DNA of 12,754 nucleotides from a virus: IMG/VR virus record IMGVR_UViG_3300023291_000078. One strand, given 5' to 3'. Below the pieces are notes generated by a model. The model was given only the letters and a program-made list of their open reading frames with translations. It searched no databases and was not told where the DNA came from. The number at the start of each line of letters is the position of its first letter. Within the stretch, counting starts at the first letter, position 1. Of the stretch, positions 1 to 12,754 are shown piece by piece. The translations under genes were made by a program, and so were the position numbers.

Positions 1-141
1 TTGCTACGTCTTGTTCCAGTGTATTTGTTGCAGTGGTAATACGCACAATCAGCGCGTCAAAGTCAGCATTAGTAGCCATTAAGTTAATTCCTCTATTACG
101 ATTGGGGTTAGTTCGTGAAGCTCTCTAATTACAGCTTCAAA
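1..141. repeat. Left copy of an exact 141-bp direct repeat of the window ends (1-141 = 12614-12754). This is a circular-closure overlap, and the unit genome is 12,613 bp.
   Basis: Compared base by base: ttgctacgtcttgttccagtg...acagcttcaaa occurs at both ends. The repeat lies inside coding sequence: the first 26 codons of the fibre gene (1-79, minus) and the 3' end of the 166-aa gene. Confidence 0.95.
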
Positions 142-579
142 TGCGTCTACAAGATCAGGCATAGGCACAGGTGGCGGTATTGGTGTTTCTCCCGGTGTGG
201 TAGGAACAAACAAACAGTCATACTGATAGTGCTTAGGTGCCCGTCCAGCTTGTGTGTAGTCCTTACTTGCAATCACTGTATACCAGCCAGCAGCAGAACC
301 AACTTGTGTATTCCCTTCAATGTAGGCAAAGGTTTCTACTTGTGTTGCTTCTGGTGGAAGGTCTGGAAAGTCTGGTGCATTGCGTAAGTAGAGAGTTCGA
401 TAGTTCTTGTAACTTGTGGCGAACTGATCGAGTGTAAACATTGTTCCTTGTTTGAATGGTTGAATGTTACCCTTAATGAAGTATGGTTGTGTGATTACAC
501 TAATGAAGTCTCCACCAGAGTAGTACCCATACCGAGTTACAAAGGGAACCCAGTTTCTGTAAAATGCGGCTATGCTCAT
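79..579 (-). CDS. 166-aa virion structural protein; candidate head-tail joining or tail adaptor protein (function unassigned)
   Basis: Its start overlaps the terminase stop as ATGA (576-579), and its stop overlaps the fibre start as TAATG (77-81), so it is translationally coupled between TerL and the fibre. The C-terminus has a Pro-rich linker (PTTPGETPIPPPVPMP) followed by an acidic helix. I recognise no family motif with certainty. Confidence 0.55.
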   Translation of the reverse strand: MSIAAFYRNWVPFVTRYGYYSGGDFISVITQPYFIKGNIQPFKQGTMFTLDQFATSYKNYRTLYLRNAPDFPDLPPEATQVETFAYIEGNTQVGSAAGWYTVIASKDYTQAGRAPKHYQYDCLFVPTTPGETPIPPPVPMPDLVDAFEAVIRELHELTPIVIEELT

Positions 580-2069
580 AGTAGCGTACTACCTCCTAAG
601 CGTTTATATTGTGAACTGTTTACGTTCAATCGGATTGTTGGGATAAGTGAACCACCCGTACACATATTAAAACAAGAGGCTACTGCGTCCGTGATATCGT
701 CGTGCATTCCAGAACATTTAAGCCCGTCAAATGCTTCCATTTCTGCATAGTGATCTTTTGTAAATACGTTAGGTGCTACAAACACTTTTCCTTCTTGTAG
801 TGCAATTAGAAAGTTTTCAGCTCGTGCCAACTTACCTTTCCGTGTCGAATCAAGCACCGCCTTATGACCTAGTGCAGCCAATCGGGCTTTCTTCTGGTCT
901 GCTACCACCCTACCAGACGCACCAGCGTCAACAGGAATGGATATATAGCAATCTCTACCGTCTATTACCGCTGTAGTCTCGATTAGTGCAGATACCATTG
1001 CAGGACTGTCACGAAGCGATACCATGTCAAGAATATAAAAGTTACCTGTTGCCTTGTCATAACAACCTTTAACGCCCCGTGTCCAGTCGGGATCTTTGTT
1101 CCCAGCATGAGGCTTAGTAGAAGCAAGGTCATAACTGCGAACAGTTGGTAAACCTTTAGGAATGTCAGCCCATGCTAAATGTTTAAACCAGTCAGAATCT
1201 ATATAGCCGTCACCCTCACTTTTTATAAACCAGTTCCCCAGCAAGTTACGGGCACGCTCGATAGGCTTTTGGTTTTCAAGTTTGTGGACGTATGCAGGCA
1301 GATTCTTACGCACATATGGGTTATCGTATACGTTTGCGTTGTAGTAGCAAAACTTCTGTGCCATTACAGCCGTTTCCCTACCAACTTCTTTTTCCATTTC
1401 TTTGTAAGTCTTGTACCAACGGAACTCACCACCTAGTTGAATCATGTAAGTGGTAACACCGTCCATTTCTTTGATTGCGTATCCGTCTTCACCAACATAA
1501 CCAGCCTTCACCAACCAATCACAAAGAAAGGAGGTATTGAGGGGGTTACAAGTTAAACGTAGTTGGTGTTTCTGTTTACTCTTTGAACGCAAGCGTGAAG
1601 TTAGAAACCATACGTCTTCTTCTTTACACTGTTGTGATTCGTCAACTAAGAATTCTGTACATTGTGTACCATGCCAGTCTTCCACGTTATTGTATAAGTG
1701 GTGACACTTGACGATTGCACCACTAGGGAATGACCAGCTTGTTTCTATCTTGTTAGAGGTAATACCATAGGGTGCAAACAGTTTTAATCCTGTGTCCCAC
1801 AAGCTACCCGCCATTTTCATTTGTTTCTGTGATTGCCTAGCCACACCAGCAACATAATTAGAATCCCACATACCAGCGAGCATAAGCCGAATCAAACTTA
1901 ATTGGGTCTTGCCTGCCGCCATAGCGCCACCCCACACAATAATGTCATGGGTATTATCGTTAAGGTAGGTTTCTTGTTTAATGCTAAGAGGTGCTAGAAC
2001 TTCAATCTCTGATAGTGTTTCTTGATCTAAGTGGAACGTGTATTCTCTTACTTTCTTTGCAGCAGCCAT
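576..2069 (-). CDS. terL: Terminase large subunit
   Basis: 497 aa. It has Walker A GAMAAGKT (VWGGAMAAGKTQ), Walker B FLVDE, a TCNP coupling motif, and C-terminal nuclease acidic motifs (RSYDLAST and MHDDITDAV). The ATG has an AAGAGG SD 6 nt upstream. Confidence 0.93.
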   Translation of the reverse strand: MAAAKKVREYTFHLDQETLSEIEVLAPLSIKQETYLNDNTHDIIVWGGAMAAGKTQLSLIRLMLAGMWDSNYVAGVARQSQKQMKMAGSLWDTGLKLFAPYGITSNKIETSWSFPSGAIVKCHHLYNNVEDWHGTQCTEFLVDESQQCKEEDVWFLTSRLRSKSKQKHQLRLTCNPLNTSFLCDWLVKAGYVGEDGYAIKEMDGVTTYMIQLGGEFRWYKTYKEMEKEVGRETAVMAQKFCYYNANVYDNPYVRKNLPAYVHKLENQKPIERARNLLGNWFIKSEGDGYIDSDWFKHLAWADIPKGLPTVRSYDLASTKPHAGNKDPDWTRGVKGCYDKATGNFYILDMVSLRDSPAMVSALIETTAVIDGRDCYISIPVDAGASGRVVADQKKARLAALGHKAVLDSTRKGKLARAENFLIALQEGKVFVAPNVFTKDHYAEMEAFDGLKCSGMHDDITDAVASCFNMCTGGSLIPTIRLNVNSSQYKRLGGSTLL

Positions 2070-2092
2070 TGTTAGCCTCTTATTTTAGAAAC

Positions 2093-2130: not shown

Positions 2131-2142
2131 TGTGGGTTACAT

Positions 2143-3150
2143 TTAAACAGTCAGAGTAATCAGAACAGTAGCGCCGTATTGCTCGTTGATAACGAGGGTG
2201 CTTTGCTCAGATTCAACTTCAACGTAACGGTCTTTAGGATCGCGGTGCGAAGTTGCAAAACGCTTGCTACCAACACCACCCAAACCAGACAGGGTAGAAG
2301 CTGGGCCGTAGATTGCAGTACCAAGGCGAGTACGTGGAACCAGAACACCAGTGTTAGCAGCCAGAACAGTTACAGCAGCGCCAGTTTTGGTAACGAAAGA
2401 ATCGTCATACAGAACTACGTCTACGTTGCCATAACGGAACATGGTGTAGCCATTTGCAACAGTACCCAGTTCGTTACGCAGTGGATTACCAGCAGCTTGC
2501 GAGAACTGCCATGCTTGCAGTACGTCAGGGCTAGCAATGATTGCAGCGAACAGCTCAGGGCTTGCAAACAGTACATAACCTTGGATACGACCACCAGTTT
2601 GCAGGCCGGCTTTAGACTTGGCTTGTGCAGCTTGAATAGAGGCCAAGGCAGTAGCAGAGGTGAAGGCTTGAGTAGGACGGGTAACACCAAACTCGGCAGC
2701 CATGCTGATAGTGCCGTAGTGGGCAGTAACAACAACACCGTTAAGGGTCATTTGTGCTTTCAAGTATTCCTCATGGGTATCATGCAGGTCAGCTTGACGC
2801 TCAAGTTCAGCAGCAACAGCACCAGCAACAATTTGTTCAGCCTCAGAACCGAAAGCACGAACACCAGCAAGTTTCTCACGGCCAATAGTTTTAACAATTG
2901 GGTAGTGTGGGATTGCCAAAGTATGCAGGTCATAACCGCTTTCTTCGGTGCTGTTTTTCTGTGCTACGTTGCGCAGGTGATCGTCCAGAATGTAAAGGCT
3001 GTTAGCTTGTACGTCAAAAGACACAGCGTCAGTACGAACTACGTCTGTACCGTACAGACCCATTGCACCGATCAGACCCGGCTTGAATGGGATACGTTCG
3101 ATAGCTGCGGTTTGGTCAACTACTTGACCGTTGTTGATAAGAATTGCCAT
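2143..3150 (-). CDS. Major capsid protein (HK97 fold, lambda gpE-like by length and pattern)
   Basis: 335 aa, directly downstream of the scaffold and decoration genes. It has an AAGGAAA SD and very strong codon bias (a full-length antisense shadow ORF), and a strong terminator follows it. The family assignment is from memory of gpE-type proteins and was not searched. Confidence 0.85.
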   Translation of the reverse strand: MAILINNGQVVDQTAAIERIPFKPGLIGAMGLYGTDVVRTDAVSFDVQANSLYILDDHLRNVAQKNSTEESGYDLHTLAIPHYPIVKTIGREKLAGVRAFGSEAEQIVAGAVAAELERQADLHDTHEEYLKAQMTLNGVVVTAHYGTISMAAEFGVTRPTQAFTSATALASIQAAQAKSKAGLQTGGRIQGYVLFASPELFAAIIASPDVLQAWQFSQAAGNPLRNELGTVANGYTMFRYGNVDVVLYDDSFVTKTGAAVTVLAANTGVLVPRTRLGTAIYGPASTLSGLGGVGSKRFATSHRDPKDRYVEVESEQSTLVINEQYGATVLITLTV

Positions 3151-3183
3151 TGTGTATATTTCCTTTCTTAGATTAGTTTAAAA

Positions 3184-3510
3184 TTACTTGTTAACTACGA
3201 TAATGCCGACAGCAGCAAAATCAGCGTCATGGGTAGCAGCGACATAACCAGTCAGAGCTTGTGCATTAACAGTGGTAGGGTTGCCACGGGTCATAAGACG
3301 AACCCAAGTACCTACAGGCCATTGGCCGGAACCGTTTACAGCGGTAGGTTCTACAGCAGTGCTAACAATAGCAAAACCGTCACCATTAGCGACAACTTGA
3401 CCAGATACAGCAACAACAGCCAGTTGTACTTGATCGAATGGTACGTTGTAATCACCGTTCATTTGAACGAGGAAGTCTTCTTTATTACCGATAGTTGCAA
3501 TAACAGCCAT
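3184..3510 (-). CDS. Head decoration / cement protein candidate (DUF2190-like small beta protein)
   Basis: 108 aa, Gly/Val/Ala-rich, sitting between the scaffold and the major capsid gene. It shares the biased codon usage of the capsid gene and has a GAAGGT SD. Confidence 0.5.
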   Translation of the reverse strand: MAVIATIGNKEDFLVQMNGDYNVPFDQVQLAVVAVSGQVVANGDGFAIVSTAVEPTAVNGSGQWPVGTWVRLMTRGNPTTVNAQALTGYVAATHDADFAAVGIIVVNK

Positions 3511-3512
3511 TT

Positions 3513-3863
3513 TTATTTACCTTCATATTTTTTAGAGAGAATTTGATCTACAAGAGAGGCACTGTCGTCAGTGGTTTGTTCTTCTGTAGACTTATCAGGG
3601 GTTGTTTCTTGTTTAAACCAGTCTCCACCACTCATGGCTTCAATCTGGCGTTCTTTCGTTTCCAGCAGTTCAAAGACTTGGTTAAAACCGTCAACACCTT
3701 GCAGTTTCATAAAGACTGGGGCGAGTTCGTTAACTAGTTCTTCGTCATACAGAATGCCTTTCAACTTTGCTTTAATCTCAGCTTCAAGGGCACCCTTGTT
3801 ATCGTCTGCTTTATTCTTAGCACTGCCCATAAGGCGTTCTAATAGACTCGGTTTGTCACTCAT
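3513..3863 (-). CDS. Scaffolding protein candidate
   Basis: 116 aa, highly charged and predicted helical (KADDNKGALEAEIKAKLK..., acidic TTPDKSTEEQTTDD). It lies between the portal-side genes and the capsid gene, and its start overlaps the upstream stop as TAATG. Confidence 0.55.
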   Translation of the reverse strand: MSDKPSLLERLMGSAKNKADDNKGALEAEIKAKLKGILYDEELVNELAPVFMKLQGVDGFNQVFELLETKERQIEAMSGGDWFKQETTPDKSTEEQTTDDSASLVDQILSKKYEGK

Positions 3864-4246
3864 TAGTAATACTTCCTAAATTGGTTTGCTTCTTGTCCAA
3901 ATGCTTTATCAAAGTCACACCAGTTTTTCCGGTCACTGTGAATAACTACACTTGGTCTAGCAGTTGGTTTACGGTTTTTAAGACTCTCAAGCCTTTCAGT
4001 CAGTGCAGAAATAAGCGGGCCAGTTTCCGAGGCTTCGCCAATCTCCCACCGTTGAGGACTAAGAGCAATGTTATTAATGATACTTTCCAGCGCAAGAATA
4101 GAACCGTCTAAAACAGAGTTACCGGCTTGCTCATAAAACCAAACATAAATAGAATCCTCTAGATATGGTTCGTCCTCGATAAAGTCACCAGTGTTCAATC
4201 TCATTTGGTCTACAAAGTTGCTGGGGTCAAGATTCGTACTAGCCAT
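3863..4246 (-). CDS. 127-aa head-associated protein; candidate connector/adaptor or minor head protein
   Basis: Coupled by TAATG overlaps to the portal (upstream) and the scaffold (downstream), with an AAGGTGGG SD. The N-terminal half is acidic. I recognise no family. Confidence 0.4.
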   Translation of the reverse strand: MASTNLDPSNFVDQMRLNTGDFIEDEPYLEDSIYVWFYEQAGNSVLDGSILALESIINNIALSPQRWEIGEASETGPLISALTERLESLKNRKPTARPSVVIHSDRKNWCDFDKAFGQEANQFRKYY

Positions 4247-5556
4247 TAACCCACCTTATCCCCTGCACGGTCTGACTGATCAGCCGTTACAGCGTTGTTT
4301 AGCTTCTTGGTATAGTCAGCACTAGGAGCGTGCCCAGCTTCCCGGAAGAACGCTTCAAGGTCTTCTGTGGCAGTAACACCACCAGATTGAACCAGACGTT
4401 GCCAACCCTTTGTAAACTCGTCCCAGTCAAGAGGCTGTAGAGGTTCCCATTCCAAACCGGGGATACGATCTAAGCTCAAGCCGTTAAGTTCAAACGCGAT
4501 ACGGATAGCCTTTTTAAACTCTTGGCTAATTACCCGCTGTACGTTCTCGATAAACAAAGTCATAAGATAAGTGCTGTTGTCCGAGAGAGCGAAAGAACCA
4601 CCTCCTTCAGCGCCCATACTCAGAACCATAGTTTGCAGGCTCAACTGGATTTCTTGGTTGTAACGTGCAATAGCTTGACCAACGTTATAGTTTTGAGCAT
4701 TACCACCACTGCCACCTACTGTCTTAACTTCATACAGGTAAATGCCATTAGCGTTAGTGTCAGAACCAGTTAGAATGTAACTACCTTTACCAGCGTGCAA
4801 CATTTCTGCTTGTGTCAGCAAGTTGGCTACATAAATAGCTTCTTCACTGTTTGGTTCACTAAAGTATTTATTGATATGCTCGCTAGGTACTTTAATGTCC
4901 AGAACACCAGAAAGGTTTTTAGCTACGCCGATAGCTTCATACTCTTGCAGGATCTTTTTAGTTTTCCATGCTGTATATGCACCGTACAACAAACTTTTAC
5001 CTAGTGGAAAGTCTGCGTCTGGTTCAATACGGAAGAAAAGAATCTTAGAACCGCTAATGTCTTTCTGTGCTACGTCTACGTTGTAAACTAAGCCGTCATT
5101 ATCAGCAGGGTTAAGAAGCAACTTATCCAGCTTGCCCCCTTTCATTTGAAACTTTTCAACTGTGGTTAGGTGAATAGGGGAGATAGTTTTAAAAACGAAT
5201 TGCCCAGCTACACGCTCACACACTACTTCATTAAGACTGCAACCATAGTCAAGCATTTGCAACCAGTTACTAACCATACGCTTCTTGTCGTAATCTTCCA
5301 TTGTTTCCAGTGAAAGGTTAAGAGCGTCAATTAGTTTCTTTTCTTGCTGGTTACTCTTTGCATGATAAGGAATGGAGAACCCACCCTTACTAAGAAGTGC
5401 CTTAATAAAACTCATACTACCGGAGATAACACCGTCTAGTTTCATATCCCGATAAGTATAGAATGCTTGGTTAATCGAAAGATCATGTTTCCCAAGCTGT
5501 AATACTGTGTTTTCAATGTGTAGTGGCTTACTCTGTTGCGAGAGGTTAGCCGCCAT
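4246..5556 (-). CDS. Portal protein
   Basis: 436 aa, the first large gene of the head module and upstream of scaffold and capsid. It has Gly-rich loops (GGSGGN, GAEGGGS) and an acidic C-terminal tail. The AGGAGC SD and TAATG overlap couple it to the upstream ORF. The call rests on size, position and general pattern. Confidence 0.75.
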   Translation of the reverse strand: MAANLSQQSKPLHIENTVLQLGKHDLSINQAFYTYRDMKLDGVISGSMSFIKALLSKGGFSIPYHAKSNQQEKKLIDALNLSLETMEDYDKKRMVSNWLQMLDYGCSLNEVVCERVAGQFVFKTISPIHLTTVEKFQMKGGKLDKLLLNPADNDGLVYNVDVAQKDISGSKILFFRIEPDADFPLGKSLLYGAYTAWKTKKILQEYEAIGVAKNLSGVLDIKVPSEHINKYFSEPNSEEAIYVANLLTQAEMLHAGKGSYILTGSDTNANGIYLYEVKTVGGSGGNAQNYNVGQAIARYNQEIQLSLQTMVLSMGAEGGGSFALSDNSTYLMTLFIENVQRVISQEFKKAIRIAFELNGLSLDRIPGLEWEPLQPLDWDEFTKGWQRLVQSGGVTATEDLEAFFREAGHAPSADYTKKLNNAVTADQSDRAGDKVG

Positions 5557-5813
5557 TATTTTTCTTGCTCCTGTTTCGTTAAGTCAGTGGTTAGTTTTTT
5601 CAGCCAAGCGGCAAATACCATTTTGTAACAACCGCCATGTGCTGTGTATTGTTGTGTATATCGCCACAAGTATTCCAAGTCATTAGGGTGTGTATCTAGC
5701 ATATAGCGTAAATACTTTCTAAGTTCCGGGCTTGGGGTTTGGGTACACTCCTTGTTACTGAAACAGTGCAAGGGAATGTCTTGTTTAGTCTGATAAGGAC
5801 TCTTTGGTTTCAT
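5556..5813 (-). CDS. 85-aa hypothetical protein (possible small Cys/His metal-binding protein)
   Basis: ATGA overlap with the upstream gene and TAATG overlap with the portal. It carries HC..x5..C and HGGC residues. It is the only positional candidate for a small terminase, but no motif supports that. Confidence 0.55.
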   Translation of the reverse strand: MKPKSPYQTKQDIPLHCFSNKECTQTPSPELRKYLRYMLDTHPNDLEYLWRYTQQYTAHGGCYKMVFAAWLKKLTTDLTKQEQEK

Positions 5814-6328
5814 TGAATTGTTTCCTTAACTTTAATCAGCTTCCCAAGTTCACGCATAACGCTAACTTCAAGCTCTACGCCTTCACTACGGTCATACACT
5901 CGATTGTAAGAGCGGTTCTTAGCTTCTGTAGCGGGTTTGGTTGACCACTTGCGTAGAGTGTTCTTGTTAGCTTCTACCCAATCCTTGAGTACAACAGATT
6001 CAATTACTGCCCAAGTGTCACCATACTCAGCAGTCCAGATACGCCAGAAGTAATAGTCTGACTCGTTGGTGTAGAAACAACCGTTACGCTTTGCACCAGT
6101 GCGAGTATTAATAGTGGTTAGTTCCAACTGTACCGAAGTCCACCCTTTTGAAGTGCCCCGCAATTGGTCTTTAACAGAGCAACTTTTAATCGTTCCGTCT
6201 TTAGCAGTAATAAACAAATCAATGTCTTTGTATTGGTCTTGCTTTACGTTGGTTAGCTTACCGTTGAACTGGCTAGCACAGATTGCCTCAGCTTTGAAGC
6301 CTTCACCGTCAAATTTAATTGCTTGCAT
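5810..6328 (-). CDS. 172-aa hypothetical protein; weak PD-(D/E)xK nuclease-like motif pattern
   Basis: Strong GGAGGG SD 6 nt upstream of the ATG. The pattern is E(13)...DIDLF...CSVKDQ...VQLEL, which resembles the E / D / (D,E,S)xK core of restriction-endonuclease-fold proteins. This is pattern-level evidence only. Confidence 0.55.
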   Translation of the reverse strand: MQAIKFDGEGFKAEAICASQFNGKLTNVKQDQYKDIDLFITAKDGTIKSCSVKDQLRGTSKGWTSVQLELTTINTRTGAKRNGCFYTNESDYYFWRIWTAEYGDTWAVIESVVLKDWVEANKNTLRKWSTKPATEAKNRSYNRVYDRSEGVELEVSVMRELGKLIKVKETIQ

Positions 6329-6783: not shown

Positions 6784-6801
6784 GTCTTTTGAAACTTTAT
6801 T

Positions 6802-7692
6802 TTAACTTTGTTGCCACCCTTGGTAATATTCAGCACCAAAGCAAGGCATGTTAATGTAATCAGGTTCCCAAACTTCTAAAGCTGGTACATGATACTCACT
6901 AATGTCTTTACCAACATTGTTTGCAAACCAAGCCTCAAACCCTACGTCAATAACTTCATGCTTCTTAGCTGGCTTGTTCCACCAGTCACCAGAAGTAAAG
7001 TTCTCTTTCTCTCCCATTGCTGAATCACAACGGTCGTCTTCATACCACTCAGCACCCTTAAACTTCTCTGTAATGTCAAACACAGGGCCAGTGTACGGCG
7101 CAGGGGGACCAACAAAGGGGATATACAGCGCGTTGTATTGGGTTTGAGGATCAACCTTGTAGTAGGTCTTGTTAGCACTAGGAATACCGCTAGCACGTCC
7201 CTTATACCCAAGCAAAGGAGCAACAAACAGCTTAATGAATCCCTTCTTACAGTCTTGTACTTGTACCCACTGATCTACTTGTTTGAGCTTGCGAGCTAGT
7301 GACTTGTCGTCAACACTCAACTTTGCACAAAGGAAAGAACGCTTACACAAAATAATGTTCTTGTATGTAATGCAATCTACAAGCTGTTTAAGGAACGCAT
7401 ACTGTGTGTTAGAAATTAAGGCTTTCTGTTTCAGAGTGCGGACACGGTAATCATTTTCTTTCTTGAACCACGTAAGGTCTGACTTTACTTTCAAACCCCG
7501 TTGGTCTGTTGTGTACTTCATAACGTCTGCAAGCTGGTCAGGGTCTGTACAATCATGCGCTGTACGCTGTGTTGCACTGTACATACGTTTGTCTTCTGCA
7601 CTCACAACAGAGCTGAATACTTCATACACCAAAGGAATGAGTTCACCTGTTTGTGTGTCTACTACGTTCTTACCTACTACTGTCATGCTCAT
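6802..7692 (-). CDS. 296-aa hypothetical protein; candidate DNA-binding / replication-initiator protein
   Basis: AAAGAGGTG SD 6 nt upstream of the ATG. The central segment (TQYAFLKQLVDCITYKNIILCKRSFLCAKLSVDDKSLARKLKQVDQWV) looks like a (winged) helix-turn-helix. The C-terminal third is Trp/Tyr-rich. It is the largest early gene in a genome with no polymerase. The function is inferred. Confidence 0.6.
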   Translation of the reverse strand: MSMTVVGKNVVDTQTGELIPLVYEVFSSVVSAEDKRMYSATQRTAHDCTDPDQLADVMKYTTDQRGLKVKSDLTWFKKENDYRVRTLKQKALISNTQYAFLKQLVDCITYKNIILCKRSFLCAKLSVDDKSLARKLKQVDQWVQVQDCKKGFIKLFVAPLLGYKGRASGIPSANKTYYKVDPQTQYNALYIPFVGPPAPYTGPVFDITEKFKGAEWYEDDRCDSAMGEKENFTSGDWWNKPAKKHEVIDVGFEAWFANNVGKDISEYHVPALEVWEPDYINMPCFGAEYYQGWQQS

Positions 7693-7807: not shown

Positions 7808-7996
7808 TCAATGAATCGTCTTTTTACTCAGCGTGACTAGGATCAAATCAAGAAGAATAGAAGGGCTTTTGTTTTGTTGTAGTGCTAGTGAATCCAAATA
7901 CGTTAGGGCTTCTGGTGTTAAGTAGAAACGACGACGAATTAGGTTTTTGTTTTGGTGTACTTCTGGTGCGTCTTGCACCAATGTTAGTTTAGTCAT
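7808..7996 (-). CDS. Ribbon-helix-helix (Arc/CopG/MetJ-type) transcriptional regulator candidate
   Basis: 62 aa from the ATG at 7996, with a GAGG SD 6 nt upstream; the track's TTG at 8008 would add 4 aa. The layout is a basic beta-strand (RRRFYLTPE) followed by two short helices (ALTYLDSLALQQ, SPSILLDLILVTL). It is the first gene of the long minus-strand operon, next to the divergent promoter region. Confidence 0.6.
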   Translation of the reverse strand: MTKLTLVQDAPEVHQNKNLIRRRFYLTPEALTYLDSLALQQNKSPSILLDLILVTLSKKTIH

Positions 7997-8008
7997 ACAA
8001 TGCCTCAA

Positions 8009-8328
8009 GTGGTTAAATTAAAAATCATATATTTTCTTTGCTCTCTCACTGTATTATACTACTATTTTTGTTGATTTGTATATAGCAAACAGTAAATAAT
8101 AGCATATATTTGTATATAATTGTGTATATCCGACGAATGGTAGTGACAATAAGAGAATCAAGTATAAAAACTTACCTTCCTTACAACATTATACCATGTA
8201 AATACAAGTCTGTCTACAACTATTTGTGTTTTGAAAGTAAAAATAACATGAAAATAGAGCTTGCATGGTAGTGGTATCGGCGTTACACTGCTTACCATAC
8301 AGACAGCAAGCCTATAGAGGTGTTTGAA
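8009..8328. promoter_or_regulatory. AT-rich divergent promoter/operator region between the RHH gene and the plus-strand cassette
   Basis: There is a perfect minus-strand -10 TATAAT (complement of 8043-8048). A plus-strand candidate has TTGATT (8061-8066), an 18-bp spacer and AATAAT (8085-8090), and a second TATAAT lies at 8105-8110. The direct repeat ATTTGTATATA occurs at 8064-8074 and 8098-8108, with a variant ATTGTGTATAT at 8109-8119, overlapping the promoter elements. Confidence 0.5.
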
Positions 8329-8607
8329 ATGGAACATGTAGCCACAGTTAGCCAAATGCGTGCAATCCTTGACTCTACCGCTGGTAAAGTATTCAGCGTA
8401 TCGTTTGTCAAGAAAGACGGTAGCGTTCGTGACATGGTATGCAGGAACGAAGTTAGTAAGGGTACAAGCGGTGGTGTAGCTGGTCATGCACACAAAGAAG
8501 AGCTTTACACTGTGTGGGATATGCAAGCTGCTGGCTTTCGCTGTGTGAACCTTACCACTGTGAAACGTATTAAGTGTGGTGAACTCAACAAGGAGTGGTA
8601 TGTATGA
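8329..8607 (+). CDS. SH3 beta-barrel / DUF2693 (WYL_2)-like small phage protein
   Basis: 92 aa from the ATG at 8329, with an AGAGGTG SD 6 nt upstream; the track starts at GTG 8320. The pattern VFSVSFVKKDGSVRDMVCR...LYTVWDMQAAGFRCVNLTTVKRI matches my memory of the FxKKDGxxRxMxC...VWD...FRxxxLxxV signature of this family. No search was run. Confidence 0.6.
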   Translation: MEHVATVSQMRAILDSTAGKVFSVSFVKKDGSVRDMVCRNEVSKGTSGGVAGHAHKEELYTVWDMQAAGFRCVNLTTVKRIKCGELNKEWYV

Positions 8608-8747
8608 AAGCCTTTCAACTATTTGTAGAACAAGACACACCTAACAGCTACCTTGTATTGTGGTTGAATAACCCTACCATTGTGCAAGAGATACAGAGAG
8701 CGGCTAAAGAGTGGGGTAAACGTACCTTTGTTATCCCAACCCTCTAA
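8604..8747 (+). CDS. 47-aa hypothetical protein, translationally coupled to the preceding gene
   Basis: ATGA overlap at 8604-8607. Translation: MKAFQLFVEQDTPNSYLVLWLNNPTIVQEIQRAAKEWGKRTFVIPTL, with a TAA stop at 8745-8747. A terminator follows. Confidence 0.5.
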   Translation: MKAFQLFVEQDTPNSYLVLWLNNPTIVQEIQRAAKEWGKRTFVIPTL

Positions 8748-8772
8748 CACCGCCTACAAGTTGTAACACTTC

Positions 8773-8797
8773 GCCCCTTTCCCCGAGGGGCTTTTTT
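8773..8797 (+). terminator. Rho-independent terminator ending the plus-strand cassette, at the convergence point with the lysis operon
   Basis: The stem pairs GCCCC (8773-8777) with GGGGC (8787-8791) around a 9-nt loop, followed by TTTTTT (8792-8797). Confidence 0.75.
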
Positions 8798-8805
8798 ATA
8801 CCCGT

Positions 8806-9027
8806 TTATTTAAACTTCTGTAATTGAGCGTTACCCTTCCTTACTTCCAATGTGAGGCTAATGTAACATTGTGCTAGCTCTGTCTCGCTATAGTCACTCA
8901 AAGGGCACTCAGCTAGCGCCTGTACGTCATAAACTGGACATACAGACTCACTTACCATTGAAGTCTTTGAGCACCCTAGCAACAGGCTCAGACAGAGAGT
9001 TATTAACCCCGTTCTTACTACGTTCAT
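8806..9027 (-). CDS. o-spanin (outer-membrane lipoprotein spanin subunit)
   Basis: 73 aa from the ATG at 9027; the track's TTG at 9033 would add 2 aa. It has a signal sequence with a lipobox (LSLLLG-C), and the small mature part carries 3 further Cys residues. It starts inside the 3' end of the i-spanin gene in another frame. Confidence 0.8.
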   Translation of the reverse strand: MNVVRTGLITLCLSLLLGCSKTSMVSESVCPVYDVQALAECPLSDYSETELAQCYISLTLEVRKGNAQLQKFK

Positions 9028-9355
9028 TTGCAATGCCCTTTAGTGTGAGTGAATAGCCGTCTAACTCTTTCTTAAACTTAGCTGTCATTGTATCTAGTTC
9101 TTTATTCCAGTCTTTACGCTGTTGCTCATACAGTTTCATTTGCTCAATATTGTATTGTGCAGACTCTAACTTTGATTGTGTTACAGCTAGCTCCCAATTG
9201 GCGTTAGAAAGGTCATTAGTTAAGGCAGTATATGAGTATAGAAACCACAATAAGGCTAAACCCAAGCTACCCCACAGCACACCTTTAAACGTTACATTAC
9301 TTACTATAAACTTCCACATATTCCCATATCCTTTTAACATAGGTTGTTGTTTCAA
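8948..9355 (-). CDS. i-spanin (inner-membrane spanin subunit)
   Basis: It has an N-terminal TMD (GVLWGSLGLALLWFLYSYTAL) followed by a coiled-coil periplasmic domain (ELAVTQSKLESAQYNIEQMKLYEQQRKDWNKELD). The start is ambiguous: TTG 9355, ATG 9340, or ATG 9319, the last with an AAGGA SD 9 nt upstream. It lies directly downstream of the endolysin. Confidence 0.75.
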   Translation of the reverse strand: MKQQPMLKGYGNMWKFIVSNVTFKGVLWGSLGLALLWFLYSYTALTNDLSNANWELAVTQSKLESAQYNIEQMKLYEQQRKDWNKELDTMTAKFKKELDGYSLTLKGIANERSKNGVNNSLSEPVARVLKDFNGK

Positions 9356-9869
9356 TCGAGTGGTGTCCTGTGACTAAAGGGAGTGCCTTTGCCATTGGAG
9401 AATAAAGAAGGCTGTTCCCTCCTTTTGCTTGTGCCTTTAGAATGTTTCCTAATCCGGCATTGTATGAGGCTAGTGCTAAAGAGTGTCTATCAACTTCTGG
9501 TCTAGGCTTCTTAAACTGTGACCGTAGGTAGTTCATGTAATAAGCATGAGCTTGAATGTTGTATTGGCTAGTGTAAGCACTTGCATTAGCTGGTAAGCCT
9601 AATTCCTTCCTAACTTGACTCCAAGTATCGGGCATGAACTGACCTAGCCCCATAGCCCCTACAGGTGACGTTGCATTAGTGTTTAATCGACTCTCAGCTA
9701 CTAATTGAGCCTTAGCCCATATCCAAGGTACAGAGGGGTTATAGAAGGCGTTCCATTTGGCTATTTGACCGTCATAAATGGCATTCCTTAGAGCGTTTGC
9801 CTGTGAAGGTAAGCACACACCAAGGGTAAGCAATAGAACGCCTAGAACTACACAATAAATGCGACACAT
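9297..9869 (-). CDS. Endolysin: lytic transglycosylase (SLT family) with an N-terminal signal or signal-anchor sequence
   Basis: It carries the SLT signature AESRLNTNATSPVGAMGLGQFMPDTW (catalytic Glu in AES) and ASYNAG. The N-terminus MCRIYCVVLGVLLLTLGVCLPSQANA-L looks like a Sec signal peptide or SAR domain. Confidence 0.9.
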   Translation of the reverse strand: MCRIYCVVLGVLLLTLGVCLPSQANALRNAIYDGQIAKWNAFYNPSVPWIWAKAQLVAESRLNTNATSPVGAMGLGQFMPDTWSQVRKELGLPANASAYTSQYNIQAHAYYMNYLRSQFKKPRPEVDRHSLALASYNAGLGNILKAQAKGGNSLLYSPMAKALPLVTGHHSIETTTYVKRIWEYVEVYSK

Positions 9870-10081
9870 ATAATCAATCCAATAGCAATAGAAGTACCAA
9901 GGAAGCGTAAGCCATAATAATGACTCATAGCTTTAGGACATTGCTCGATCTTATCAAAGGCTTTCTTAAAGTCTACGTCTAGAAGTTTGTCAAATACCCT
10001 CAATAAGAGGAACTGACAGAGTAGGAATAGGCAGAATGCAACTAATCCCATACCAAGTTTAATCATAAATAGAGTAATCAT
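9848..10081 (-). CDS. Holin candidate (two transmembrane domains, pinholin-like size)
   Basis: 77 aa with TMDs at about residues 5-28 and 55-77. It is immediately upstream of the endolysin and overlaps it by 22 nt. The call is positional plus topology. Confidence 0.65.
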   Translation of the reverse strand: MITLFMIKLGMGLVAFCLFLLCQFLLLRVFDKLLDVDFKKAFDKIEQCPKAMSHYYGLRFLGTSIAIGLIICVAFIV

Positions 10082-10111
10082 ATTACATATACCTTTATTA
10101 GTTGGTTAATA

Positions 10112-10121
10112 ATTGATCAAT
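10112..10121. promoter_or_regulatory. Perfect 10-bp palindrome ATTGATCAAT, 31-40 nt upstream of the holin start
   Basis: Self-complementary by inspection and contains a GATC. It lies between ATTCTATCAAT (10125-10135) and the holin SD region. Confidence 0.35.
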
Positions 10122-10282
10122 AGTAATTCTATCAATACATTTGTGTGGTGTGAATGAGGGTAACACCTGCCAAACCCTTGTGTTACTTGGGGTAGCAAGT
10201 GTAAGTTGTCTATACAAGCTGTTGTTACGTTGGCCCGATCATAAATTTTTGCTATTGTCAAGCCCTTTTTCAATATATTTTA

Positions 10283-10432
10283 CCTATAGCTGACGAACGG
10301 TCACTAGCACAGGTCACTCACCAAGTCCAATGAATAATATCTATCAGGATACTCACACCAATAGACATAGCCTATATGTGAGCCTATAGAGAATACCTAT
10401 CACAGTACCTTAGTCCATTGTATTTACCTATA
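10283..10432 (+). repeat. Cluster of same-orientation CCTAT-core direct repeats (iteron-like)
   Basis: CCTATA occurs at 10283, 10371, 10383 and 10427, and CCTATC at 10396. Three copies are spaced 12-13 bp apart (AGCCTATATGTG / AGCCTATAGAGAAT / ACCTATCACAG). Related CTATCA copies are at 10127, 10341, 10634 and 10680. Confidence 0.55.
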
Positions 10433-10434
10433 AG

Positions 10435-10474
10435 GCTAGCTAGCACAATGTAGTGAGGAGGTCAAGCATTGACC
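10435..10474. promoter_or_regulatory. Two adjacent palindromic operator-like sites: GCTAGCTAGC and GGTCAA-GCA-TTGACC
   Basis: GCTAGCTAGC (10435-10444) is a perfect 10-bp palindrome. GGTCAAGCATTGACC (10460-10474) is a perfect 6-3-6 inverted repeat. Confidence 0.4.
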
Positions 10475-10946
10475 GACGAATGGTTACTACTAAATATATA
10501 CACTTGACATACCTAGTAGAGTGTGCATACCCCACCCCCTGCCCCTTCCTGTTCGTATAATAAAGAGAATATGTTAAATTGCTCTTACTCTCTCACTCAT
10601 ACTTTTAGTGTGTTGTCAATACATTGTATATTTCTATCAGCTTCCCTCTGTCCATAGTCTGTCTCTTCATTAGATTATTCTATCAATCTTCTGTGTCAAA
10701 TGAATATAAACAATTGGACAAGCTGGCGGATATCCTGTAAAATAATAGTTGACGCCCCTCTTAAAAGCATAGTCCCATATAAACATATGAGCTACTTGAC
10801 TTTCCTCCCCATTTAGTCTACTCACCCCTTCAAAACAGGCTACTTAATAGAGTGGCTATATCTCCCCGATATAATGTAACACCCGACAGGTCAAGGCCGC
10901 ATAGGCCGCTTCCCCTTTGTTCTTCTTGTAAGTGTTACCTAAAGAA

Positions 10947-11177
10947 TCACGGAATAATACGTGTCTCTAGTTTGCTTTTAATTATCTCAACGTCTGTTCT
11001 CAGGGTACTTAGGGTGTTATAAATATCCCCCAGAACGTCAAGCTTTGTTTCCACCTTAGTTAGTCGTGTATCAACTTCTTCTAACTTCTTGAATCTGTCC
11101 CTAACTAGCCAGCCTATGAAAGCACACATACCCACTAGTATTACACCGACAAGAAATATAACTCCTTCAAGTCCCAT
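10947..11177 (-). CDS. 76-aa membrane-anchored coiled-coil protein (function unknown)
   Basis: A strong AAGGAG SD lies 8 nt upstream of the ATG and overlaps the fibre stop codon. It has an N-terminal TMD (VIFLVGVILVGMCAFIGWLV) followed by heptad-like KKLEEVDTRLTKVETKLDVLGDIYNTLSTLRTDVEIIKSKLE. Confidence 0.7.
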   Translation of the reverse strand: MGLEGVIFLVGVILVGMCAFIGWLVRDRFKKLEEVDTRLTKVETKLDVLGDIYNTLSTLRTDVEIIKSKLETRIIP

Positions 11178-11189
11178 GTTAGTATCTCC

Positions 11190-12692
11190 TTATACTGGCA
11201 ACCAAGTACCGTCTGAAGTTTTAAACACATACATTTGACCAGCAGTAGTAGTACCTTGAATGTATGCAGTTGCACGGTTCTGGAAGTTACCCGCTGCAAT
11301 CTCACCTCTGTCTACAGTGATAAAACCAATACCACCAGCCAATGCACCAGAAGCAAAGTCAGCACTACGGAAGCAGTAACGACCAGCAGGAATACCCATA
11401 AGTGTAGAACCAGAAGCAAACAATCCACTACCAGTTGCAGTACCAGCAGCGTTAGCACAATCACCAATCCATATTGCTTCCATTGGATTCAAGTTAGGCC
11501 AGTTAGTAACAGAAACCCCTTTGTATCGGAAGGCAATAGTGGGGTGTCCAACACCAGAACTAGAAATAGGACGCCAAGTAACAGTGCTACCTGTGATAGT
11601 CCAAACATACTCATTTACTGGAGTGGTAAAGGTAGTTACAACAGCGGTTTGAGTAGTAGCATTCAGTTTCTTAACTTCTACGTTACCAGCAAGTGCAGAA
11701 AAAGGAGTACCAGAAAACGCACCAGCAGGGAACCAGTAGTTACCAATGGGTAAAGCGTTAACACCGCTCTGTGTGTTGAAAAGTGCCGCACCTTCTACAT
11801 AATCACCCTCAACATATTGACCAAAGCGGCTAAGTTGTGCAGCTTCATTAGGGTTAGCAACAGGCCAAGCTGTAATGTTAACAGCACCACTACCGGGATT
11901 ATAACCAACGCTAGGAATTGGATAACCAGCAGTAGAAGCGGGAGCACTACCCCAAGTACCATTACCAAGCAGCACAGTAGTAGCAGAAGGCGTACCAGTA
12001 CCCAAACGTGCAACAGGTACTTGACCACTTGCAATATCAGCACCTTCTAAAGTTACAACACCAGTCTTACCAGCAACAGAACGTACAGGGGCAGTTGCAG
12101 CAGTTACAAACCCAGCACCGTTAGTAAGTTGGATAGTGGTAGTTCGTATTACAGTGTTACCAGCAAGAGCTTGGTTAGCAGCAGTACCAATAATAGGAGC
12201 AAAGGTAGTTGGTTTGTCTGTTACTTCTGACCATGCTGGAACATACGAACTAGGTTTAGCTCCTACGTCAGCAGCAGCCAGGACAACAACACCAGTTTGA
12301 CCATTTACGCTATCAACTGCACCACCACCCCCACCGCCTGTTACAACAACCCAATCCCCGTTATTACGACCATAAGTTTGACTGTCTTCTGGGGCTTCTT
12401 GAATGATTACAGCGTTTTCAAGTTCAGTTACAAGGGCTTGAGCTTGAGAAGCAGAGGTAGCAGCATTCCCAGCTTGTGTAGAGGCCAAAGCTACTTGATC
12501 TTGTGCAAGGGTTACTTGTCCAGCAGCGTTAACAGCAGCAGCCTCAGCGTTAGCCTCAGCCAGTTGTGCAGCAGCTACAGATTCAGCTACGTTAGTAGTA
12601 CCTTCTGAAATAGTTGCTACGTCTTGTTCCAGTGTATTTGTTGCAGTGGTAATACGCACAATCAGCGCGTCAAAGTCAGCATTAGTAGCCAT
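11190..12692 (-). CDS. Tail fibre / receptor-binding protein
   Basis: 500 aa. It has an Ala/Gln-rich N-terminal coiled coil and a QEAPEDSQTYGRNNGDWVVV motif (the EAPxDxxxYxRxNGxW fibre signature). After a poly-Gly hinge there are two SV(N/A)G(Q/K)TGVVxLxxAD repeats, then LLGNGTWG. The C-terminal domain is tandemly duplicated. Confidence 0.9.
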   Translation of the reverse strand: MATNADFDALIVRITTATNTLEQDVATISEGTTNVAESVAAAQLAEANAEAAAVNAAGQVTLAQDQVALASTQAGNAATSASQAQALVTELENAVIIQEAPEDSQTYGRNNGDWVVVTGGGGGGAVDSVNGQTGVVVLAAADVGAKPSSYVPAWSEVTDKPTTFAPIIGTAANQALAGNTVIRTTTIQLTNGAGFVTAATAPVRSVAGKTGVVTLEGADIASGQVPVARLGTGTPSATTVLLGNGTWGSAPASTAGYPIPSVGYNPGSGAVNITAWPVANPNEAAQLSRFGQYVEGDYVEGAALFNTQSGVNALPIGNYWFPAGAFSGTPFSALAGNVEVKKLNATTQTAVVTTFTTPVNEYVWTITGSTVTWRPISSSGVGHPTIAFRYKGVSVTNWPNLNPMEAIWIGDCANAAGTATGSGLFASGSTLMGIPAGRYCFRSADFASGALAGGIGFITVDRGEIAAGNFQNRATAYIQGTTTAGQMYVFKTSDGTWLPV

Positions 12693-12754
12693 TAAGTTAA
12701 TTCCTCTATTACGATTGGGGTTAGTTCGTGAAGCTCTCTAATTACAGCTTCAAA
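12614..12754. repeat. Right copy of the 141-bp terminal overlap
   Basis: Identical to 1-141. It contains the fibre start codon (12690-12692) and the last codons of the 166-aa gene. Confidence 0.95.

Follow-up and report, generated by a model that had tools for sequence, protein, structure and literature searches.

The window, by which we mean the whole 12,754-bp stretch of viral DNA analysed here, begins and ends with the same sequence: bases 1..141 match 12614-12754 exactly, resulting in a circle of 12,613 bp in which all genes except two lie on the minus strand (Table 1). A first-pass annotation had described a closed replicon overlapping itself by 141 bases within coding sequence, with a head module, TerL, a fibre and a lysis cassette; the overlap and independent assemblies bear out the former, and family matches the latter.

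Table 1. Features of the 12.6-kb element, in window coordinates.
Feature	Position	Strand	Basis or remark
Terminal overlap, inside fibre gene	1..141	.	Exact 141-bp match; junction-crossing contigs
g166, head-closure (stopper) neck protein	79..579	-	AlphaFold/Foldseek and sequence profile
g497, large terminase	576..2069	-	PF03237 and PF17289; phrog_979 at 3.9e-112
g335, major capsid protein, lambda gpE type	2143..3150	-	PF03864 4.8e-37; phrog_29 1.8e-34
g108, decoration protein candidate	3184..3510	-	Position directly upstream of capsid gene
g116, scaffolding protein candidate	3513..3863	-	Position and charged helical sequence
g127, head-to-tail adaptor, portal-binding neck protein	3863..4246	-	Family profile against solved neck chains
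g436, portal protein, Mu type	4246..5556	-	PF06074 5.5e-12; phrog_113 2.6e-38
g85, small protein directly upstream of portal gene	5556..5813	-	Conserved, fixed position
g172	5810..6328	-	101 clusters at 90% identity, contigs <=14.4 kb
g52, 52-aa ORF	6565..6723	-	Own strong promoter-like site; conserved in close relatives only
g296, winged-helix DNA-binding protein	6802..7692	-	AlphaFold model, Foldseek
g66, small conserved protein heading early operon	7808..8008	-	Conserved in L003, L004, L013-L016
Divergent promoter region, AT-rich, 29% GC	7950..8250	.	Composition
Plus-strand gene pair	8320..8747	+	95-aa WYL_2-domain protein (8320-8607), 50-aa ORF (8595-8747)
Terminator hairpin GCCCCTTTCCCCGAGGGGC then T run	8773..8791	+	Between convergent lysis operon and plus-strand pair
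g75, Rz1-like outer-membrane lipoprotein spanin	8806..9033	-	phrog_456 2.9e-3; lipobox LLLGC
g135, Rz-like inner-membrane spanin	8948..9355	-	phrog_739 5e-5; phrog_89 1.3e-3
g190, endolysin, lytic transglycosylase	9297..9869	-	PF01464 SLT 7.9e-17; phrog_669 endolysin 1e-29
g77, holin candidate, small membrane protein heading lysis cassette	9848..10081	-	Position, hydrophobicity
Non-coding region, 865 bp	10082..10946	-	No gene called here in L023 or L024
g76, N-terminal membrane segment and coiled coil	10947..11177	-	Always after fibre gene
g500, fibritin-like fibre	11190..12692	-	PHROG tail/virion-protein matches 1.7e-7 to 5.5e-7

MEGAHIT's largest default k-mer is 141, so a 141-bp overlap is the usual signature of a circular assembly path. 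Alone, such an overlap proves just that path in the assembly graph, and it is as compatible with a circularly permuted molecule or a concatemer as with a circular molecule. On this ground the circle could be an assembly artefact, a piece of a larger phage falsely closed at a repeat. Against this, the same circle or a crossing of its junction appears in three other assemblers or samples. A 13,106-bp contig (L023, JGI sample 3300021965) is colinear at 98.9% over 13,120 bp of the doubled genome, and thus passes the junction and exceeds one genome length; a 12,667-bp contig (L024, Logan run SRR31654368) closes on itself with a 30-bp overlap; and in L001/L025 the order g166, 500-aa fibre gene, g76 runs unbroken across the junction. 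Furthermore, the ORF that spans the junction is single-copy and uninterrupted in other contigs, related contigs end at 12-14 kb by the hundred, and att-delimited integrated relatives measure 12.8 and 15.1 kb. The relatives L013 (12,860 bp, 127-bp overlap) and L017 (13,376 bp, 144-bp overlap) also self-close. Checked as a possible chimera or repeat artefact, the overlap proves to be neither; we consider false closure already close to refuted, and give it almost no credence.

Among the head and packaging genes, g497 is ~32% identical to TerL of Pseudomonas and Pectobacterium phages of 92-101 kb, and the closest cultured phages by g335 are myoviruses of 76-100 kb (26% identical). g116, which has no family match in profile searches, is conserved in place between the adaptor and decoration genes. 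The conserved g108 shows a sub-threshold BclA_C match and none to solved structures; its position suggests that it is probably the decoration protein. The position of g85 is kept in nearly all full-length members examined, integrated ones included, and family, PHROG and profile searches returned no informative match for it; it may be a packaging specificity factor acting in place of a small terminase. Together with the two neck proteins described below, the head set suffices to build a small head and package the element's own 12.6-kb DNA, sealing included.

The first-pass annotation had counted about five small unassigned proteins as all that was left for a tail. Structural and profile searches of the small ORFs place two of these, of 127 and 166 aa, not in a tail but on the head side of the neck. 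A profile built from the g127 family hits two neck chains, 9c39_C of phage Sf14 (9.2e-9) and 9mt4_C of phage Bas63 (2.5e-8), as well as 'Head to Tail protein gp72' (3e-3); g127 further matches phrog_1732 (4.9e-10). The AlphaFold model of g166 is moderate (pLDDT 72; TM-score 0.4-0.5), with Foldseek matches to 9mt4_E (9.3e-5), 9cc7_E (1.7e-4), 9c39_E (7.9e-4) and, lower, the necks of E217, Milano, 7-7-1, SPP1 and T1, while its sequence profile finds the 'Head-closure protein' 9mt4_E (6.6e-6) and 9c39_E (5.9e-5). Since fold and sequence profile agree independently, we conclude that g166 is a head-closure protein. Both proteins resemble neck components of contractile-tailed phages of the Felix O1/Sf14/Pakpunavirus type, the best matches being myoviruses of the same broad lineage as the closest TerL and capsid relatives, and both are of the kind that docks pre-assembled long tails.

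The fibre gene comes directly after the head-closure gene. In its product the N-terminal anchor is conserved and the C-terminal part variable; an Ala-rich coiled coil, repeat motifs of the kind found in tail fibres and a foldon-like motif, QEAPEDSQTYGRNNGDWVVV, which resembles the T4 foldon, are also present. Short motifs are common to g500 and phage tail fibres, and Fibritin_C matches occur in the homologues of L016 and L017, and faintly in L033. In IMG/VR the anchor is confined to this element family and found in no large phage. A C-terminal helix of g166 (~28 aa) is present in 8/8 fibre-encoding members and 0/6 fibre-less ones, a distribution confounded by the shared ancestry of the two clades; with the gene adjacency, it suggests that fibre and neck are coupled.

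In the lysis cassette, g190 carries an N-terminal signal sequence and shares 46% identity with Vibrio siphophage endolysins. g135 has a coiled coil and an N-terminal membrane segment, and its end is overlapped by g75, an overlapping arrangement typical of Rz/Rz1. The family matches of g77 are weak, and it is conserved in L003, L004, L013 and L014. g76, conserved in the same four and in L015 and L017, has weak matches (phrog_736 7e-4; holin phrog_689 0.027) and is a questionable candidate for a holin-like or lysis-timing role. The 865-bp non-coding region contains conserved blocks with indels, promoter-like sites, inverted GTCCAAT motifs and repeated TGATAG motifs; there are 3 copies of TGATAGRWAT where 0.09 would be expected. 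It has no Rfam match, shows no covariation, and may serve as an origin, as a packaging site or as a late/lysis promoter.

The stretch 8008-8806, previously supposed to be a gap, is not empty but holds two plus-strand genes, called in L023 and L024, conserved in L004 and L014, and divergent from the g66-g296 operon. The 95-aa protein matches PF10902 at 4.6e-6, its score of 27.3 bits lying above the cut-off of 26.7, and is a candidate regulator. Minus-strand promoter-like sites lie at 8216-8188 (11/12 matches) and 8082-8053, and that of g52 (TTGACA-18-TACAAT) at 6783-6754. A profile search with g66 against solved structures gave nothing meaningful; judged by eye from its invariant LIRRRFYL, it looks like a ribbon-helix-helix regulator. 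In the AlphaFold model of g296 (pLDDT 52 overall), residues ~95-160 form a predicted winged helix (pLDDT 70-83), whose Foldseek matches, at a best E-value of 0.02, include CodY/MarR-type regulators and RepE/Rep initiators. Its close homologues are confined to this element family; remote ones give weak RepL, HTH_Crp_2 and MarR_2 matches (RepL in 4/47). The slot it occupies is exchanged among relatives, as replication slots are swapped in plasmids and PICIs. By this modelling g296 is a candidate replication initiator or regulator, the case for a Rep role being weak. g172, with no match to a family, a solved structure or the integrated relatives, is restricted to integrase-less members among the loci examined.

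Family and profile searches of the genome detected no integrase, polymerase, small terminase or tail tube, in keeping with the earlier remark that tail-tube, replication-enzyme, small-terminase and integrase genes are not recognisable. Neither did any search of the genome find a tail terminator, tube, sheath, tape measure or baseplate gene, an absence of detected homology that extends to the small or unknown proteins g85, g172, g76, g52 and g296. Nozzle, tail-knob, ejection and cell-wall-piercing virion proteins were likewise undetectable in the genome, and family and profile searches of it found no ParA/ParB, toxin-antitoxin or recognised RepA gene.

Relatives comprise >100 protein clusters at 90% identity, their longest contig being 15.6 kb. 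That contig is also the longest relative in IMG/VR, where none of the 21 adaptor-bearing contigs exceeds 15.6 kb; in a large protein collection, 27, 41 and 101 protein clusters have longest contigs <=14.4 kb. Relatives that keep the gene order, 41-100% identical in amino-acid sequence, all measure 11.5-14.4 kb. A search for the same synteny in phages of 30-60 kb, proposed with the first annotation, found none, and neither collection holds a relative inside a large phage.

More distant relatives, with capsid proteins 41-59% identical, reside in Halomonadaceae chromosomes. An island in Chromohalobacter moromii (12,838 bp, 33-bp flanking repeats, 45% GC vs 63% in the host) has a tyrosine integrase and a head module, and is devoid of tail, fibre and lysis genes. 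A second, in Halomonas sp. 25-S5, spans 15,061 bp between 39-bp flanking repeats and also has an integrase, while in Vreelandella arcis the same head module is followed directly by host-type genes. The adaptor and head-closure genes of the integrated relatives are homologous to those of the 12.6-kb element. Lacking lysis, fibre, tube and sheath genes alike, the two att-flanked islands are not autonomous and must need a helper; they look like capsid-forming satellites. The clade of the 12.6-kb element has lost the integrase and gained the fibritin-like fibre, the lysis cassette and a winged-helix (perhaps Rep-like) module.

The first-pass annotation had offered three readings without choosing. 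One is an autonomous, extremely reduced podovirus-like phage, whose whole 'tail' would be the portal/adaptor/head-closure ring with six neck-mounted fibres; it would adsorb by the fibre, deliver DNA without a tube, use host enzymes and a plasmid-like initiator for replication, and lyse the cell itself. Such a virus would carry its own fibre and full lysis cassette, and the element's own early regulatory and replication module, its family-specific fibre anchor, its lack of an integrase and the wide occurrence of its clade as ~12.5-kb circular contigs, never met integrated, also suit this reading. However, its two neck proteins are of a type to which a long tail, assembled on its own, is attached, the genome shows no detectable nozzle, tail-knob, ejection or cell-wall-piercing protein, and homologous head modules occur in the helper-dependent islands. 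We know of no tailed phage that infects a Gram-negative cell with a stopper ring alone. This reading has thus lost ground, and we are sceptical of it.

Our conclusion from this set of results, held with moderate confidence, is that the circle is a complete, non-integrating, capsid-forming phage satellite of an undescribed family, which is the third of those readings: a satellite with a borrowed tail and its own fibre and lysis genes. The sealed head would become infectious by joining a tail, either one made by a helper myovirus infecting the same cell or a free one that it encounters. The trimeric fibritin-like fibre would be mounted on the element's own neck via the C-terminal helix of g166, and could serve as the satellite's own adhesin, binding either the host cell or, like the fibres of MiniFlayer, the helper virion. 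The early operon, g66 with the winged-helix g296, may recruit host or helper enzymes for replication, with the WYL_2 protein and the 865-bp region probably providing control and an origin or packaging site. Release would be by the element's own holin, secreted transglycosylase and Rz/Rz1 spanins. Having no integrase, the satellite may persist as an episome or travel between cells alongside its helper.

The remaining reading, a phage-plasmid-like element, has in its favour a possible mode of persistence between helper encounters, and no partition gene supports it. In its fuller form, a satellite-plasmid would be inherited mainly vertically as an episome and form occasional particles, a helper inducing the capsid, fibre and lysis genes. 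The circular form, the lack of an integrase, the divergent regulatory region with WYL_2 and winged-helix proteins, the RepL-like signals of g296 homologues and the swapped replication slot are consistent with this, and episomal capsid-forming satellites do exist in Vibrio (cf-PISP in Vibrio crassostreae, PMC13230959). Yet ParA/ParB, toxin-antitoxin and recognised RepA genes are missing, PLSDB holds no relatives, and GTDB representative genomes contain no plasmid-like contigs of the element. Because the clade is absent from 185,579 representative bacterial genomes, as integrant or plasmid, and from PLSDB, a stable episomal state is unsupported. We judge a satellite-plasmid unlikely, though worth keeping in view; it departs from the preferred satellite reading in persistence only, transmission being the same.

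For a satellite, the lack of an integrase and the possession of its own fibre and cell-lysis genes are unusual; known satellites do not typically carry a fibre and full lysis cassette. The element is comparable to cf-PICIs, to which it is not homologous, and to MiniFlayer. cf-PICIs produce filled capsids without tails that acquire foreign tails (bioRxiv 10.1101/2025.02.11.637232). MulchRoom, of 14.8 kb, has an integrase, whereas MiniFlayer, of 17.4 kb, has none and bears fibres that bind its helper's neck (PMC10690885). MulchRoom thus parallels the integrated clade, and MiniFlayer the fibre-bearing clade to which the 12.6-kb element belongs.

The window closes into a circle of 12,613 bp with 42.8% GC, its first and last 141 bases being identical. 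An overlap of 141 bases, MEGAHIT's largest default k-mer, is the usual mark of a circular assembly path, and the form of the molecule is not given by such an overlap alone. Independent assemblies agree with closure. L023, a 13,106-bp contig from another JGI sample, is colinear with a doubled window genome (98.9% identity over 13,120 bp) and crosses the junction; L024, from the Logan assembly of SRR31654368, is 12,667 bp long and closed by a 30-bp overlap; and the junction-spanning gene is uninterrupted in contigs L001/L025. More distant relatives also close on themselves, at 12,860 bp (L013, 127-bp overlap) and 13,376 bp (L017, 144-bp overlap). Since these contigs cross or close the circle independently, the whole replicon is in view, and the closed genome that the first-pass annotation had read from the end overlap stands. 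An assembly artefact is countered both by these contigs and by integrated relatives delimited by direct repeats (att), and is essentially excluded. L023 exceeds one genome length by ~490 bp, and its overlapping ends are 95.8% and 99.7% identical to the window, a difference that suggests co-existing strains in the sample or read-through of a concatemer.

The minus strand holds eighteen genes and the plus strand two, the latter pair having been missed in the first-pass gene map. The pair sits between the lysis cassette and g66 (g and a number denote a window protein by its length in residues), divergent from the early operon and facing a divergent promoter region of 29% GC. The terminator hairpin at which it ends (8773-8791) likewise faces the lysis operon's end. 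The WYL_2 domain that it encodes scores just over Pfam's cut-off.

Features of the window and of related loci (positions refer to the window unless a locus is named)
Feature	Position	Strand	Description
Early and lysis genes		minus	in transcription order: g77, SLT transglycosylase, Rz-like/Rz1-like spanins, g66, g296, 52-aa ORF
g77		minus	probable holin
Endolysin		minus	SLT transglycosylase with signal sequence; PF01464, 7.9e-17
Rz-like and Rz1-like spanins		minus	overlapping genes; Rz1-like carries lipobox
g66		minus	small conserved protein
g296 slot	6802-7692; L003:2420-3576; L014:5445-6594; L016:4352-5719		swap hotspot
Two plus-strand genes	8320-8747	plus	95-aa WYL_2 (Sm-like SH3) protein; 50-aa ORF
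Late block		minus	in order: g172, g85, portal, g127, scaffold-like, decoration, capsid, TerL, g166, fibre, g76
Portal		minus	Mu type; PF06074, 5.5e-12
Scaffold-like protein; decoration protein		minus	charged scaffold-like protein and probable decoration protein, between g127 and capsid
Capsid protein		minus	gpE type; PF03864, 4.8e-37
TerL		minus	phrog_979, 3.9e-112
g76		minus	small; membrane segment and coiled coil; after fibre gene
Non-coding region	10082-10946		865 bp, 7% of the compact genome; between g76 and holin
Chromohalobacter moromii island	L020:3629-16467		12,838 bp; 33-bp direct repeats; adjoins dnaX
TMP_3 protein loci	L005:10812-12755; L006:11511-13223; L018:12625-14535; L022:9700-11643		in integrated-type relatives

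The head and packaging hallmarks of autonomous Caudoviricetes (HK97-fold capsid protein, portal and TerL) are present in the window. Five small unassigned proteins had been left by the first-pass annotation as possible tail builders, a role that falls away for those of 127 and 166 aa, both of which are neck proteins. The family profile of g127 matches neck chains of phages Sf14 (9c39_C, 9.2e-9) and Bas63 (9mt4_C, 2.5e-8), and also a 'Head to Tail protein'; thus g127 is the portal-binding adaptor. The model of g166 (pLDDT 72) is a beta-barrel with a C-terminal helix, and its best structural matches are the Bas63 connector chain E (9.3e-5), the PhiTE connector (1.7e-4) and the Sf14 neck (7.9e-4), with further matches to the necks of E217, Milano, 7-7-1, SPP1 and T1. 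Independently, the g166 sequence profile matches 'Head-closure protein' chains in 9mt4 (6.6e-6) and 9c39 (5.9e-5). A tblastn search among cultured phages gave no match for g166, and single-sequence searches against solved structures returned nothing for g296, g172 or g166. In phages that dock separately built long tails, as in siphovirus and myovirus assembly, adaptor and head-closure proteins complete the neck on its head side.

The nearest cultured TerL (~32% identity) and capsid protein (~26%) all belong to myoviruses of 76-100 kb, of the Felix O1/Sf14/Bas63/Pakpunavirus-like kind that also supplies, in the Sf14 and Bas63 necks, the best solved-structure matches. The neck proteins, TerL and capsid protein all point to this one broad lineage, which suggests a virulent myovirus as helper. 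Whereas the Felix O1/Sf14-type phages are complete, with contractile tails and replication genes of their own, the window is about one seventh of their genome size and has no tail. Searches of its proteins against Pfam, PHROGs and NCBIfam revealed no tail terminator, tube, sheath, tape measure, baseplate or podovirus nozzle, and of a self-encoded tail (tube or nozzle, tail-completion and tip proteins) only the fibre was detected. This absence is a matter of homology searches, and the unassigned proteins g85, g172, g76 and g52 could hide a tail gene. Profile searches yielded nothing for g172, g85, g108 and g66, and NCBIfam gave zero matches for eight window proteins. Neither a small terminase (TerS) nor an HNH endonuclease was matched in Pfam, PHROGs or NCBIfam, and a protease domain was found in no window ORF. 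By position only, g85 is a candidate packaging factor.

Relatives in IMG/VR (41-100% amino acid identity) keep the order g85, portal, adaptor, scaffold, decoration, capsid, TerL and head closure, every contig being 14.4 kb or shorter. In a collection of 5.8 billion proteins g296, g166 and g172 form 27, 41 and 101 clusters respectively, none with an informative name, and the longest contigs of these clusters are mostly 11.7-13.2 kb and at most 14.4 kb. Adaptor-encoding IMG/VR contigs are likewise small (21 of 21 at or below 15.6 kb). The first-pass annotation had raised the prospect that close relatives might be embedded in phages of 30-60 kb; with all relatives' contigs at or below 15.6 kb, none was found. 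A megablast search of the whole genome against GenBank phages gave no match. A homologue of g172 was found on a contig of 919 bp in a highly fragmented assembly (NCBI GCA_002120585.1, NFYZ01008732.1), which may indicate a host or a host-associated sample.

When one genome was scanned for each bacterial species, five relatives turned up, every one of them in a member of the Halomonadaceae. The island in Chromohalobacter moromii TMW 2.2308 (L020) has ~45% GC against ~63% for the chromosome. Besides the head module it encodes a tyrosine integrase and a head-closure protein of 129 aa; fibre, lysis and tail genes are all absent. A DUF5677 protein lies beside its integrase. In Halomonas sp. 25-S5 the island (L018) spans 15,061 bp between 39-bp repeats, and in Vreelandella arcis host-type genes come directly after the head module. 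No tRNA was found in scans of the integrated loci. By gene content these homologous integrated elements are capsid-forming satellites in the sense of the cf-PICIs, to which they are not homologous.

Some integrated-type relatives encode, immediately behind the TerL or head-closure gene, a protein of 570-647 aa with a TMP_3 tape-measure domain; tail tube, sheath and baseplate genes were not found in these relatives. The protein might resize or hijack the helper's tail. We considered whether L018 is a piece of a larger siphophage prophage; it is att-delimited at 15.1 kb, lacks tube and terminator genes, and is therefore not a truncated prophage. L005, L006 and L022, which carry the tape-measure-like gene and end at contig edges, may be fragments of larger siphophage prophages.

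The window belongs to a clade of circular members (with L003, L004, L013-L017 and L033) which, compared with the integrated relatives, has lost the integrase and gained the fibre with g76, the lysis cassette, g172 and g66. The fibre has a conserved N-terminus (MATNxDFDxLIxRI) followed by an Ala-rich coiled coil, and contains the motif QEAPEDSQTYGRNNGDWVVV, which we take to resemble the foldon of T4 fibritin; Pfam Fibritin_C matches occur in the fibre homologues of L016, L017 and L033. A hunt for helpers by the N-terminal anchor in large IMG/VR phages found it only in this family. Because no other IMG/VR contig has the anchor, its target is probably encoded by the element itself. In the aligned set, a C-terminal helix of ~28 aa on the head-closure protein is present in 8 of 8 fibre-encoding members and 0 of 6 fibre-less ones. 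We infer that the fibre may be mounted on the neck, by analogy with the whiskers of T4, the correlation of helix and fibre coinciding with the split of the two clades. The window's own fibre, g500, has an extra C-terminal module relative to the shorter fibres of relatives (residues ~250-500; gene at 11190-12692), in which motifs of the module before it (NPxEA..., IPxGxY.F) recur, suggesting that the receptor-binding part has been duplicated internally.

The g296 slot is exchanged even between genomes that are otherwise nearly identical. The capsid protein of L003 is 99-100% identical to that of the window, yet its g296 slot holds a 245-aa protein and two small ORFs; in other members, circular and integrated, the slot holds a 455-491-aa P-loop protein of phrog_2467 with helicase-like motifs, for which a profile search yielded nothing. 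The model of g296 is of low quality overall (pLDDT 52), a winged helix at residues ~95-160 being the exception, and its Foldseek winged-helix matches are only generic (E-values 0.02 or worse), including RepE and other iteron-binding initiators as well as regulators. Searching 1.8 billion representative proteins with a profile of the N-terminal 180 residues gave 85 remote homologues; among 47 scanned with Pfam, HTH_Crp_2 (5), RepL (4) and MarR_2 (4) were matched, all weakly. The predicted fold is that of a DNA-binding protein, and g296 could be an initiator. No polymerase, primase or helicase is found in the window.

Blocks of the 865-bp non-coding region are conserved in L003, L013 and L014. 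TGATAG-type motifs occur there five times, all on the same strand; three of them are exact, where 0.09 would be expected. GTCCAAT motifs lie in inverted orientation ~400 nt apart. Searches for iterons picked up the TGATAG motifs but no convincing tandem array. The region could be an origin, a packaging site or a cluster of promoters. We also considered a packaging or regulatory RNA there; Rfam gave no match at a permissive threshold, and the idea was dropped because RNAalifold found covariation absent (term -0.19).

What is present, then, is a closed 12.6-kb genome with a myovirus-type head, packaging and completion module, a lysis cassette, a trimeric fibre and no tail. One reading is that it is an autonomous, tail-less mini-phage derived from tailed phages, which infects Gram-negative cells with only a portal-adaptor-stopper ring and neck-borne fibritin-like fibres, replicating from a plasmid-type initiator. 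Its own adhesin, lysis and early genes are consistent with this, as is the fact that it has never been found integrated or in isolates; however, DNA would have to pass the stopper ring without known ejection proteins, and we regard autonomy as unlikely. The smallest autonomous tailed phages (phi29-like phages and Mycoplasma phage P1, 11-20 kb) possess a protein-primed DNA polymerase and tail-knob or collar proteins; the window is similar in size, but neither was detected in it. If it is autonomous, no polymerase-less member of the Caudoviricetes would be smaller, and its virion architecture would be new.

The reading that we prefer is a capsid-forming satellite that borrows the tails of a helper. 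The small capsids of P4 and SaPIs are the basis, by analogy, for supposing that the element would build small heads of about T=3-4. Its DNA would be packaged by TerL, perhaps aided by g85, and the heads sealed by the adaptor and head-closure proteins, with fibres mounted on the neck. After lysis of the cell, infectivity would be gained by joining the contractile tail of a Felix O1/Pakpunavirus-like helper. The type of neck and the absence of tail genes together point to this dependence on helper tails. A marine or saline gammaproteobacterium is the probable host, because the window endolysin shares 46% identity with its counterparts in Vibrio siphophages and relatives occur in Halomonadaceae. 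Single steps of the scheme have published precedents in the cf-PICIs (bioRxiv 10.1101/2025.02.11.637232), in MiniFlayer and MulchRoom (PMC10690885), and in episomal capsid-forming satellites of Vibrio (PMC13230959). That the element is an episomal satellite-plasmid is a proposal which bears on persistence only; parA/parB and repA-type maintenance genes were not detected in the window, and a capsid search of PLSDB returned no relatives, only a 22% identical prophage-like match in Pseudochrobactrum megaplasmids.

A capsid-forming satellite is a known kind of element. What is new here is the lineage (gpE-type capsid with Felix O1-like neck), the size of the family, and an integrase-less form with neck fibre and lysis cassette. 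We found no published description of the family and no informative database name for any of its proteins. If the satellite reading is true, capsid-forming satellites arose at least one more time, from a gpE/Felix O1-like head lineage, and a large unnamed family is present in public metagenomes, with more than 100 clusters when one family-specific protein is clustered at 90% identity. The loss of integration with the gain of neck fibre and lysis cassette would be a step undescribed for Gram-negative satellites, giving a satellite that controls both the specificity of its adsorption and the timing of its release and borrows the tail alone. This would bear on how satellites of strictly lytic phages persist, on the host range of chimeric particles, and on the classification of small 'complete' virome contigs, which may now count as tiny phages.

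The cf-PICIs of Proteobacteria are described in PMC10690885 as elements of 10-15 kb with their own capsid, portal, connectors and terminase, for which the helper supplies only tails, and they release tail-less filled capsids able to take foreign tails (bioRxiv 10.1101/2025.02.11.637232). The window resembles them in encoding capsid protein, portal, head-tail connectors and TerL with no tail genes, and its Halomonadaceae relatives L020 and L018 do so in being chromosomal islands with integrase and att repeats. However, the cf-PICI capsid is of family PF05065 with a head maturation protease (PMC13230959), whereas that of the window is of the PF03864 gpE type, with scaffold and decoration proteins and no protease. 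The small terminase and HNH endonuclease of cf-PICIs are not detectable in the window, and in place of an integrase-bearing chromosomal island there is an integrase-less genome that assembles as a circle and adds a fibre and complete lysis cassette. Instead of temperate phages, the neck proteins of the window point to helpers like the strictly lytic large myoviruses.

The cf-PISP of a marine gammaproteobacterium is an extrachromosomal circular element of 15.8 kb, capsid-forming and tail-less, with genes for parA, repA, protease, HNH endonuclease, terminases and a tyrosine recombinase, and with a capsid that groups with those of cf-PICIs (PMC13230959). The window is similarly small and circular, but the plasmid genes of cf-PISP are absent and the capsid family is different.

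MulchRoom and MiniFlayer, satellites of Streptomyces BE-cluster phages (14.8 and 17.4 kb), encode capsid and packaging functions and are associated with large virulent helpers (PMC10690885). MiniFlayer has its own short tail and long direct terminal repeats, and the relevant passages report no lysis cassette for it (PMC10690885), whereas the window has one, of Gram-negative type, the Streptomyces host being Gram-positive. With MiniFlayer the window shares capsid and packaging genes and the absence of an integrase. The window's fibre may bind either a cell or a helper virion. According to the same paper, MulchRoom keeps its integrase, while MiniFlayer has lost it and has fibres that bind the helper's neck (PMC10690885). 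Likened by that published description, the pair parallels the integrated, fibre-less and the integrase-less, fibre-bearing clades that we describe here.
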